From the IMG/VR virus record IMGVR_UViG_2851938318_000004: 25,161 nucleotides of DNA. One strand, 5' to 3'. The translations under genes were made by a program, and so were the position numbers. Of the stretch, positions 17,796-18,284 are shown in pieces (positions within the stretch are counted from its first letter, which is position 1; each line of letters opens with the position of its first letter). A model generated the notes under the pieces. The model was not told the origin of the DNA, made no database searches, and saw nothing but the letters and a program-made list of their open reading frames with translations. The DNA comes from a virus (lineage: Duplodnaviria; Heunggongvirae; Uroviricota; Caudoviricetes).

Positions 17796-17809
17796 CACTT
17801 ATTTTCCCT

Positions 17810-17835
17810 GGCTCGCTTTTGCGGGCCTTTTTTTT
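17810..17835 (+). terminator. Strong intrinsic terminator after the tRNA cluster
   Basis: GGCTCGC-TTTT-GCGGGCC followed by T8. Confidence 0.7.
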
Positions 17836-18284
17836 AAATGTCTCACAATTCAGGCGGTTGACTGTTGTCTGGTTTGCGGGGAGTTTGTTAAAAGAAACTG
17901 GCATGGTGAATCCCCCTGTGCGGAGGGGCAATCAGCGAGTAGGTATATGGGATAATCGCGGATTCAGGTGCTGGTACTGAATTCACCGGGAGGCACCCGG
18001 CACCATGCAATGGCACATAGCGCCACTCTCCAGCCCCTCTCCGGAGGGGCTTTCTTATGGACAAAAAAAGCCCGCGCAGGGAGACGCGGGCGGCAAGGAA
18101 TAAACAACAAAACGTGAAGTAATATTTCAGCTGGCGAATAATATCCGACAGTAATCACTCTGCGCAATAGCGCGGCCTTTTTCGTATTGCGGGCTGTTGT
18201 CTCTCTTCTGCCATTGTCCTGTAACTTCCGGACTTCAGCCCGCTCCTCATTTTACTCACAATATTATCCCGGCCGGGAGGATTC

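Follow-up and report, generated by a model that had tools for sequence, protein, structure and literature searches.

We find that the 489-bp spacer between the tRNA genes and nanS-p, positions 17796–18284 of the window (the whole 25,161-nt stretch of viral DNA analysed here), very probably consists of a tRNA terminator, an STnc100 sRNA and an EcOnc08/21/42 sRNA, and that it forms the toxin-free moron site of an Sp4-like prophage whose two sRNAs act in trans with Hfq. We assign this reading a probability of about 0.88. The first-pass annotation had described the segment as an empty stx position with a cluster of hairpins that could form a small RNA or an attenuator controlling nanS-p. A small RNA is indeed formed, but there are two of them, and they are convergent. 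Both RNAs were detected on the identical Sakai sequence by Hfq-CRAC peaks and northern blots (PMC4104026), and RIL-seq in EPEC further defined the minus-strand RNA, on a 181/182-identical copy (PMC8550237). Convergent sRNA pairs were reported 3' of PR' at the moron site of Sp3, 4, 5, 9, 10, 11, 15 and 17 (Tree et al. 2014, PMC4104026). The hairpins of the spacer are already explained by these convergent Hfq-binding sRNAs known in pathogenic E. coli: two experimentally documented sRNA genes fill a spacer that RefSeq leaves unannotated save for a spurious pseudogene.

The whole window matches a prophage of E. coli O111:H- 11128 with 100% identity, and the spacer shows 0 mismatches against the argO-to-ECs_1088 spacer of the O157 Sakai prophage Sp4. 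Judged by its sequence, the window prophage is lambdoid, comes from an EHEC O111 strain and is equivalent to Sakai Sp4. On its left, the spacer is flanked by a tRNA cluster of the ileZ-argN-argO type (17546–17795, plus strand), supported by ARAGORN, by Rfam tRNA matches and by the way RefSeq annotates the identical loci of O111 and Sakai. Its members are tRNA-Ile2 (anticodon CAT), tRNA-Arg (TCG) and tRNA-Arg (TCT), the first being called Met-CAT by ARAGORN and tRNA-Ile of the ileZ type by RefSeq. The right flank is the nanS-p type sialate O-acetylesterase gene (18285–20135, plus strand; Pfam DUF1737, SASA and DUF6645), whose product RefSeq names "SASA family carbohydrate esterase". The proposal that the gene order is that of Stx phages holds for the tRNAs, nanS-p and the holin gene (20583–20789, PF04971), which are found in synteny. 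It does not hold for Q (14832–15212, PF06530), which does not adjoin the tRNAs; a CPBP/Rce1-like protease gene (15358–16182), a 65-aa ORF and an AraC-type regulator gene (16804–17517) intervene.

All four hairpins proposed earlier were recovered, at the positions given, by a terminator scan and an inverted-repeat search. The intrinsic terminator 3' of the tRNA cluster (17810–17835, plus strand) has a stem at 17810–17827 with 7 bp, 6 of them G-C, and a T8 run at 17828–17835. Stx2 phages retain it upstream of stx2A (aligned with positions 2140–2165 of the Stx2a phage L002). The two GC hairpins are CCCCU-GUGCGG-AGGGG (17913–17928, plus strand) and AGCCCCUC-UCCG-GAGGGGCU (18032–18051, plus strand; tail TTCTTAT). 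The minus-strand element is GCCCGCG-N8-CGCGGGC (18091–18070), followed by seven T on that strand (18069–18063). Additionally, the terminator scan gave a further plus-strand hairpin absent from the earlier description, CUGCGC-AAUA-GCGCGG with a CCUUUUU tail (18160–18182). It lies inside the minus-strand sRNA, within a block 91% identical to Sp5, and is kept upstream of nanS-p in Sp5 and Stx2a phages; L002 has this hairpin as well. Altogether, 10 terminator-like sites occur in 16400–18500, against 2.3 ± 1.4 in 50 dinucleotide-preserving shuffles of the same interval, which makes them about four times commoner.

The claim that the spacer holds no ORF stands, as the overlapping mechanical ORFs reach only 32–77 aa and none is credible. 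There is next to no probability that a small protein is encoded here. It is true that RefSeq has one annotation in the spacer, a minus-strand "hypothetical protein" CDS at about 17891–18016 that is flagged as pseudo and truncated, that a Stx1-phage record annotates "ORF b70" at this place, and that ribosome footprints were found on some EDL933 STnc100 copies with a coverage ratio of up to 3.2 (PMC5331693). Against this, the short ORFs lie in several frames and start mostly with TTG or GTG, and what is conserved is paired helices with compensatory changes, not codons. The RefSeq pseudogene is spurious.

A covariance search for known sRNAs, which had been suggested as a check, revealed the Rfam family RF02076 (STnc100) at 17872–18062 on the plus strand with 138 bits and an E-value of 1e-30, covering model positions 1–206 of 206; the score is well above the gathering score of 47 bits. 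The two GC hairpins are helix 1 (17913–17928) and the terminator (18032–18051) of this RNA. The terminator has an 8-bp stem and a UUCUUAU tail reaching 18058 and is the last helix of the Rfam model. We assign the gene to the EcOnc05 allele of this Hfq-binding family and place it at 17839–18058 (plus strand, 220 nt), a putative extent that begins where the conservation with Stx phages sets in and ends with the terminator tail. The EcOnc05 northern probe, once reverse-complemented, is found without a mismatch at 17930–17964. In Sakai Sp4, whose copy is identical in sequence, EcOnc05 is Hfq-bound with a CRAC peak that maps to 17933–18041, and it gives a northern band of about 222 nt (Tree et al. 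2014, PMC4104026). By this northern size the 5' end would fall at about 17839–17856. The Table S2 coordinates of that study refer to NC_002695.1, from which the current record deviates by about 135 nt at Sp5; our mapping of the Sp4 peaks therefore rests on the probe positions and on independent EPEC coordinates.

A promoter of the plus-strand RNA was looked for in the copies from E. coli phages, but no site with at least 9/12 matches was found upstream of P1, the closing helix of the 5' domain, or upstream of the block start. CACAAT at 17844–17849 is a weak -10 candidate. In other genera, 18 STnc100 copies have a phased sigma-70-like promoter 0–7 nt before P1, and any sigma-70-like site within 45 nt is present in 22 of 77 copies.

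The window RNA shares with the STnc100 family the full-length match, the same helices and terminator, and the genomic place after tRNAs or stxB and before nanS-p. In Stx2a and Stx1 phages a member of the family follows stxB directly. The family goes by the names EcOnc05, EcOnc06 and EcOnc27/sRNA103 in EHEC, with the related PasD1/PasD2 (EcOnc13) in EPEC; in EDL933, transcription of STnc100 copies was observed, with a northern signal for one of them (PMC5331693). The Sp5 copy (EcOnc27) is 71% identical to the window over 17839–18009 and then unrelated up to 18159, so that the mid-domain and the tail from P1 to the terminator differ, while PasD shows about 76% identity over 58 nt only. Because the sequences differ, the inferred targets of sRNA103 and PasD are not transferable to the window copy.

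The structured 5' domain of the STnc100 RNA (17901–18008, plus strand) was delineated by the cmscan alignment, the MFE fold and compensatory changes. P1 pairs GCAUGGUG (17901–17908) with CACCAUGC (18001–18008); it encloses helix 1 (17913–17917 with 17924–17928), a hairpin at 17961–17983 and the invariant hairpin CCGGG-AGGCA-CCCGG (17987–18001). A pseudoknot is proposed between 17926–17932 (AUCAGCG) and 17969–17975 (UGCUGGU), and it co-varies across copies. P1, the CCCCU/AGGGG hairpin, the CCGGG-AGGCA-CCCGG hairpin and the 3' terminator are all present both in cmscan and in the unconstrained MFE structure; the single-sequence MFE reproduces the domain helices with z = -2.19. Across the 77 STnc100 copies from many genera we see compensatory changes in P1 and helix 1.

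Could this domain be a sensor, riboswitch-like or protein-binding, that gates the terminator at 18032–18051 and the downstream genes in cis? We regard this as very unlikely. The pseudoknotted fold is compact, with an invariant 22-nt core, and recurs in 110 stretches of a one-genome-per-species set. At 21 of these 110 loci a KdgM-family porin gene follows the domain in the same orientation, at a distance of 37–225 nt, and a variant class carries a ribosome-binding site and ATG directly 3' of it. These features would suit a sensor, but the genes 3' of the module are heterogeneous (esterase, Rha, DUF5983, porin or none) and many copies continue into a variable 20–50-nt tail and then a strong terminator, which is the layout of a trans-acting sRNA. 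Furthermore, a conserved alternative pairing was not found, the relative PasD has trans targets by RIL-seq, and no ligand candidate is known. Since at least one of the window's Q, esterase, holin and lysozyme was found by tblastn in only 29 of the 110 loci from other genera, the STnc100 family is not tied to the late-region type of the window. In Klebsiella, Kosakonia, Raoultella and Enterobacter the module may also serve as the leader of a KdgM-family porin gene. A broader proposal, which we consider unlikely, is that the domain goes beyond a passive scaffold and is a widespread pseudoknotted Enterobacteriaceae module, either protein- or ligand-binding or a processing and stability element, with exchangeable 3' seeds and reuse by mobile elements; if so, the window domain would couple a signal to sRNA release or to nanS-p read-through. 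Unless they are already recorded, the co-varying pseudoknot and the sub-class of porin leaders would extend the family description.

The second RNA of the spacer, on the minus strand, is the convergent Hfq-binding sRNA EcOnc08/EcOnc21 of Sakai Sp4 (18063–18244; the 182-nt extent follows the EPEC RNA-seq estimate). Its terminator comprises the stem 18091–18070 and the U-run 18069–18063, so the terminator-like element first noticed on this strand belongs to it; the plus- and minus-strand sRNA terminators lie back to back, 18 nt apart. The seed CCUUGCC (18098–18092) directly abuts the terminator stem and is unpaired in the centroid fold, and a GU-rich stretch GUUUUGUUGUUU is found at 18113–18102. 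The sequence is identical to the Sakai copy and matches the EPEC RNA at 181/182 positions, terminator included (NC_011601, 1444978–1444797). The EcOnc08/21/42 probe equals the plus strand at 18137–18171 exactly and thus detects the minus-strand RNA. The CRAC peaks of EcOnc08/21 in Sakai map to 18065–18137 and 18143–18228 (Tree et al. 2014, PMC4104026). Homologues are EcOnc42 of the Stx1 phage Sp15 and the EPEC PP6 sRNA "E2348C_1409.E2348C_1408.IGR"; they share with the window RNA the terminator, the CCUUGCC seed and the position antisense to the esterase-gene leader. The reported sizes disagree, with about 271 nt by northern blot in Sakai and 182 nt by RNA-seq in EPEC (PMC8550237). A promoter scan gave a promoter-like site with 9/12 matches on the minus strand (18263–18291), which we assign putatively to this sRNA: a -35 ATGCCA (18291–18286) that overlaps the nanS-p start codon at 18285, a 17-nt spacer and a -10 GATAAT (18268–18263). 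The site is located consistently with the estimate for the 5' end of the EPEC homologue.

The CA-rich run at 18102–18113 and the position had raised the suspicion that the minus-strand element is AsxR or AgvB. This assignment was rejected. What defines these anti-sRNAs is a conserved 3' region of some 42 nt (GUAUCUCAUGC..UUGCCCGAACCC..UCGGGC), together with an overall size of 51–60 nt and a 5' end that varies; the 42-nt core has no match with up to 6 substitutions anywhere in the window, and RF02703 and RF02702 gave no Rfam match at the gathering score or at E<=1. In addition, the CA-rich run lies on the wrong strand, the expressed strand being GU-rich. The window RNA does occupy the same slot as AsxR, AgvB and EcOnc03, as the minus-strand partner between an STnc100-type RNA and nanS-p, and the flank on the nanS-p side, with the hairpin 18160–18175, is common to it and the Sp5 AsxR locus (91% identity). 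However, it is about three times longer, and RIL-seq ties the EcOnc08-type RNA mainly to mRNA leaders, not to a core sRNA.

In EPEC, the RIL-seq partners of the 182-nt homologue include cfa (767 chimeras), dppA (197) and tir, and the shared target motif is GGCAAGG (PMC8550237). The single-stranded CCUUGCC seed adjoining the terminator is complementary to this motif. With the cfa leader the seed region forms a 9-bp pairing of UUCCUUGCCG with UCGGCAAGG at -15.5 kcal/mol, but energy-based prediction did not distinguish the cfa and dppA leaders from dinucleotide shuffles: duplex energies at least as good as that of the whole seed arose in 287 of 500 shuffles for cfa and in 144 of 500 for dppA. The match to the published RIL-seq motif is the sole support for the seed targets. 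In the dppA leader, 10 nt of the GcvB site find their complement in the GU-rich GUUUUGUUGUUU. A mimicry of GcvB-R1 would follow from this pairing, but with only 10 contiguous pairs at -9.4 kcal/mol it stays a speculation. If the dppA pairing were real, the alternative alleles of the slot, AgvB and EcOnc08, would both act on the GcvB-dppA axis.

In the model that we favour, the STnc100 RNA would continue from its conserved pseudoknotted 5' domain through a variable tail into a terminator hairpin. Its minus-strand partner would start beside the nanS-p start codon, run antisense through the nanS-p leader and offer the single-stranded CCUUGCC seed directly before its terminator. Both would serve as Hfq-dependent base-pairing regulators of core and virulence mRNAs. 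Action of both sRNAs in trans in the lysogen is most likely, and a role as switches for nanS-p is not likely. We infer the exact 5' ends, the promoters and the regulatory effect on any target. With StxS and lambda 6S RNA these RNAs share that they are short late-region phage RNAs with an intrinsic terminator, Hfq-bound and made in lysogens. StxS, however, lies between PR' and tR' directly after Q, while the window RNAs are found some 2.6 kb downstream of that place and do not arise from termination at tR'.

The idea of an attenuator of nanS-p is not supported: no conserved antiterminator pairing was found, and the RNA module also precedes unrelated genes. In a rival reading, the hairpins would be a cis-acting cascade of terminators and attenuators that silences nanS-p and the lysis genes in the lysogen and is overridden only by Q-modified RNA polymerase, with the short RNAs as by-products. 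Three plus-strand terminator-like hairpins do line up between the tRNAs and nanS-p (17810–17835, 18032–18051 and 18160–18182), the region lies downstream of Q and PR', and StxS offers the precedent of a terminated late transcript that is itself an sRNA (PMC7547250). Moreover, the 3' strand of helix 1, GGAGGGGC (17922–17929), exactly complements the 5' strand of the terminator, GCCCCUCC (18033–18040), which makes an antiterminator pairing conceivable in the window copy. By inspection, the Sp5 copy and most copies of other genera lack this 8-nt complementarity, and a riboswitch-type alternative pairing was rejected as not conserved. The minus-strand element is by design unable to stop transcripts that enter nanS-p on the plus strand, the RNAs are bound by Hfq and occur in chimeras with distant mRNAs, and the module is followed by unrelated genes or none. 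We therefore consider such a cascade unlikely, noting that cis and trans roles are not mutually exclusive.

What, then, of the toxin genes? The alignment with Stx phages confirmed the empty stx position as a clean empty site just 3' of the tRNA terminator. By blastn, window 17543–17836 matches the tRNAs and terminator of the Stx2a phage LC567818 with 92.9% identity, and window 17839–18392 aligns to the same phage from 41 nt 3' of stx2B. The 1.33 kb of LC567818 with stx2AB falls exactly between these two blocks, and Sakai Sp5 gives the same two-block picture around its stx2AB. Because the blocks of both phages border stx2AB exactly, the flanks of the spacer are stx flanks, and the opposite case, a spacer with no relation to stx flanks, does not apply. 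The blastn breakpoints and the junction alignment place the empty junction at 17836–17839: stxA and stxB are absent, the cassette of LC567818 and Sp5 (about 2169–3500 in L002, about 1558–2891 in Sp5/L005) has no counterpart, and its flanks abut at 17836|17839. In the reading that we favour, the spacer is a toxin-free allele of the lambdoid late-region "moron" insertion site.

Compared with the stx2 locus of 933W, Sp5 and Stx2_14040, the window has the tRNA triplet and terminator, the STnc100-type sRNA and nanS-p in the same order, with breakpoints exact to about 2 nt. It differs in lacking stx2A and stx2B, in the AraC-type regulator and CPBP protease genes between Q and the tRNAs, and in its minus-strand partner, which is of the Stx1-phage type (EcOnc42-like) and not AsxR. 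The exactness of the empty site indicates that stx2AB behaves as a discrete 1.33-kb moron, its slot lying between the tRNA terminator and the start of the Stx-phage-conserved block that holds the STnc100-type sRNA. The empty site is useful for reconstructing the origin of toxin phages and for reading stx-negative relatives.

It is possible, though less likely than not, that the site is the scar of a loss of stx2AB by recombination between ATCTG microhomologies rather than a site that never bore the toxin. ATCTG stands at both cassette edges in Stx2 phages, and removal of the cassette there would give TTATATCTGTGTCAC, where the window reads TTTTAAATGTCTCAC. Phage Nil3, from an O157:H7 strain, has the Q gene, tR', the tRNAs and an identical spacer without stx. 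Nevertheless, there is no ATCTG at the window's own junction, and a five-base microhomology is expected by chance. The uninterrupted junction is also common, occurring in 1014 of 5426 complete E. coli genomes (about a fifth), and it is found in prophages whose neighbours are unlike those of Stx2 phages, with an AraC regulator and a CPBP protease, not Q, at the tRNAs. These observations would suit a site that was empty originally and received stx later as a moron.

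The spacer between the phage tRNA cluster (17546–17795) and nanS-p (18285–20135) is a feature already described in the EHEC and EPEC sRNA literature. Its 489 bp (17796–18284) match the argO1–ECs_1088 spacer of the O157:H7 Sakai prophage Sp4 with 0 mismatches, so that experiments performed in Sakai hold for the exact sequence of the window. Over 16400–20800 the window is also 100% identical to the E. coli O111:H- 11128 chromosome and numerous other O111 genomes; RefSeq annotates the spacer solely with a truncated pseudo "hypothetical protein". Only mechanical ORFs of 32–77 aa overlap it, in agreement with the first-pass annotation, which had reported no ORF. 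By reading 16500–19000 and by pattern scans we recovered every element listed there: on the plus strand the tRNA-cluster terminator directly 3' of the third tRNA (stem 17810–17827, T8 17828–17835) and the hairpins CCCCU-GUGCGG-AGGGG (17913–17928) and AGCCCCUC-UCCG-GAGGGGCU (18032–18051), on the minus strand a terminator (stem 18091–18070, T7 18069–18063). The pattern scan added a fifth hairpin with a T-run (18160–18182, plus strand). Altogether, 16400–18500 contains 10 terminator-like sites versus 2.3 ± 1.4 in shuffled sequence.

The proposal that the hairpins could form a small RNA was borne out, because two of them are part of EcOnc05/STnc100. Rfam places a full-length STnc100 RNA (RF02076) at 17872–18062 on the plus strand with 138 bits (gathering score 47), and the GC hairpins 17913–17928 and 18032–18051 are its helix 1 and its terminator. 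An unconstrained MFE fold yields the closing helix P1 (17901–17908/18001–18008), helix 1, two more hairpins and the terminator as in the Rfam model (z = −2.19). EcOnc05 was reported from the plus strand of Sp4 with an Hfq-CRAC peak and a northern band of ~222 nt (Tree et al. 2014 Table S2, PMC4104026). Mapped to the window, the peak covers 17933–18041, and the reverse complement of the northern probe matches exactly at 17930–17964. The 5' end of this RNA probably lies near 17839–17856, since the northern sizes fit a start where the block in common with Stx phages begins and not P1: from this point to the terminator tail we count 220 nt in the window versus ~222 nt on the northern, and 231 nt in the Sakai prophage Sp5 versus ~235/247 nt, while P1 to the RNA end spans merely 158 and 171 nt, respectively. 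Promoter scans found no stringent promoter for the plus-strand RNA.

The minus-strand terminator near 18063–18091 was found to end a second sRNA, a homologue of an EPEC RNA defined by RIL-seq. EcOnc08 and EcOnc21 have peaks in the same table and a northern band of ~271 nt (Tree et al. 2014 Table S2, PMC4104026); the peaks map to 18065–18137 and 18143–18228. Because the probe has the plus-strand sequence of 18137–18171, the RNA detected is the minus-strand one. EcOnc42 is the Stx1-phage copy. The homologue of EPEC E2348/69 is a 182-nt RNA, 41 nt upstream of an esterase gene (PMC8550237), and window 18244–18063 is identical to it at 181 of 182 positions. The RNA folds into a 5' stem, internal hairpins and an unpaired stretch GUUUUGUUGUUUAUUCCUUGCC, which is followed at once by the terminator. 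Here, CCUUGCC (18098–18092) is the complement of GGCAAGG, a motif common to cfa (767 chimeras), dppA (197), tir, emrA and pcm, which are RIL-seq partners in EPEC (PMC8550237). Pairing of this region with the cfa leader could reach 9 bp (−15.5 kcal/mol); the seed–target energies of the minus-strand RNA were not better than those of shuffles. A promoter-like site on the minus strand (−35 18291–18286, −10 18268–18263; promoter scan) overlaps the nanS-p start codon, which would make the RNA antisense to the nanS-p leader. The GU-rich stretch GUUUUGUUGUUU of the same sRNA (18102–18113) is complementary over 10 nt to the site bound by GcvB in the leader of dppA; dppA is the second most frequent RIL-seq partner of the EPEC sRNA, and in other prophages the slot of this sRNA is taken by AgvB, an anti-GcvB sponge. 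At −9.4 kcal/mol the predicted duplex is weak, so the match may be coincidental.

Convergent sRNA pairs located at the moron insertion site, downstream of PR', were published for eight Sakai prophages (Tree et al. 2014, PMC4104026), and the convergent arrangement is thus already known. The coordinates of Table S2 refer to NC_002695.1; NC_002695.2 is shifted by ~135 nt at Sp5 (AsxR), apparently not at Sp4, where only zero shift keeps both probes on their respective peaks, in agreement with the independent EPEC coordinates. Re-mapping by sequence is advisable for anyone who reuses the table. Both RNAs most probably act in trans as Hfq-dependent sRNAs produced in the lysogen. They may in addition influence nanS-p in cis, be it by termination, by promoter overlap or by antisense pairing, but no observation calls for this. 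In the present STnc100 copy, the terminator nearly duplicates helix 1 (17922–17929, 18033–18040), and GGAGGGGC of helix 1 exactly complements GCCCCUCC of the terminator 5' strand, so that the hairpins could swap partners. The earlier idea of an attenuator controlling nanS-p was not supported, and we reject a conserved attenuator, because this complementarity is confined to the present copy and is kept neither in Sp5 nor in other genera.

The spacer is indeed an empty stx position, as its flanks match both sides of the stx2 cassette. Window 17543–17836 aligns with the tRNAs and terminator of the Stx2a phage LC567818 (92.9% identity), and 17839–18392 with its sequence starting 41 nt past the stx2B stop; nothing in the window corresponds to the intervening 1.33 kb (stx2 promoter region, stx2A, stx2B). 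The breakpoints against Sp5 are the same. ATCTG stands at both cassette edges in Stx2 phages, a 5-base microhomology too short to argue for a mechanism. Against an Stx1 phage, homology begins at window 17901, 108 nt past stx1B. The STnc100 family, too, is found directly 3' of stx2B and stx1B in toxin phages; STnc100 was described 75 nt downstream of stx2B (PMC12370729) and overlaps EcOnc27/sRNA103 (PMC12711010; PMC7873438). The 5' end proposed for the plus-strand RNA would put the toxin cassette practically where the sRNA unit begins. Nil3, a phage from a bovine O157:H7 isolate, has the identical spacer after Q, tR' and the tRNAs, with no toxin gene. Of 5426 complete E. coli genomes, 1014 contain an uninterrupted match to a 121-nt probe spanning the empty junction. 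The expected gene order held for the tRNAs, nanS-p and holin, but not for Q beside the tRNAs: Q (14832–15212) lies 2.3 kb upstream, and the interval holds a CPBP-type protease gene, a 65-aa ORF and an AraC-type regulator gene. The latter (HTH type, 16804–17517, plus strand), immediately upstream of the tRNA cluster, is a homologue of Sakai ECs_1087 with 237 aa versus 195 aa as annotated in Sakai; in Stx2 phages this slot holds Q/tR' or a DNA methylase gene.

In Sp5, Sp10 and Sp17 the slot of the minus-strand sRNA is occupied by the AsxR/AgvB anti-sRNAs. An AsxR/AgvB identity was rejected for the minus-strand element: the conserved anti-sRNA core is absent from the window and Rfam gave no match to either family. 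Sp5 shares both flanks with the window, but 18010–18159 is exchanged for unrelated sequence. For this reason the prophage is a combination of Stx2-type left flanks with an sRNA pair of the Stx1-phage type. In the EPEC prophage PP6, ISEc13 splits the STnc100 copy at the site equivalent to window 17916–17923; the parts on either side of the insertion have 8 window positions in common, in line with a target-site duplication, and the convergent minus-strand sRNA beside it is intact and expressed.

Beyond phages of this type, a collection with one genome per species contains 110 stretches with an exact match to the 22-nt core CACCGGGAGGCACCCGGCACCA (from Klebsiella, Kosakonia, Enterobacter, Raoultella, Citrobacter, Buttiauxella, Pantoea, Erwinia and others). 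Among 77 aligned copies, compensatory changes are seen in P1 and in helix 1. Within 17901–18008, the linker 3' of helix 1 (AUCAGCG) complements the apical loop of the third hairpin (UGCUGGU), and the pair co-varies (ATTAACC/GGTTAAT, GTGATACC/GGTATCAC, GGCAAA/TTTGCC). Complementary runs average 5.78 when each sequence is matched to its own partner versus 4.21 ± 0.11 for permuted partners (0 of 5000 permutations as high), a test inflated by sequence relatedness. The 5' domain thus appears to contain a co-varying pseudoknot, which is absent from the Rfam structure line, although Infernal output would show none anyway. A sigma-70-like promoter lies within 45 nt upstream of P1 in 22 of the 77 copies, phased 0–7 nt before P1 in 18 of these. 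At 21 of the 110 species-level loci (L014, L025, L027–L029, L035, L037, L042, L051, L056, L063, L071, L076–L078, L081, L084, L104, L116 and others; Klebsiella, Kosakonia, Raoultella, Enterobacter, Citrobacter) the domain stands 37–225 nt upstream of an orthologous, co-oriented KdgM-family porin gene, a context that looks like a leader. A variant class (L016, L017, L022, L041, L058, L059) has a ribosome-binding site and ATG directly after the domain; elsewhere Rha or DUF5983 genes follow, or just a terminator. These data agree with a conserved scaffold whose 3' parts can be exchanged. A role of the 5' domain as a sensor is at most possible, as nothing specific supports it, and we consider it improbable that this domain by itself constitutes a functional pseudoknotted module.

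Further RNAs were found in the window. The interval from nanS-p to the holin gene contains a PasA copy 100% identical to the EPEC sRNA (20285–20369, minus strand), and a second minus-strand terminator straight after the nanS-p stop (20125–20202) corresponds in position to EcOnc52 and to the 236-nt "minor" PasA form, so that three Hfq-sRNA genes flank nanS-p. Rfam also reports DicF (5430–5481, minus strand, 76.7 bits), a sok antitoxin RNA (12646–12820, plus strand, 117.5 bits), which implies a hok/sok-type locus, and, near both window ends, two identical ALIL frameshift pseudoknots of IS3-family elements (2913–3029 and 24764–24880, minus strand).
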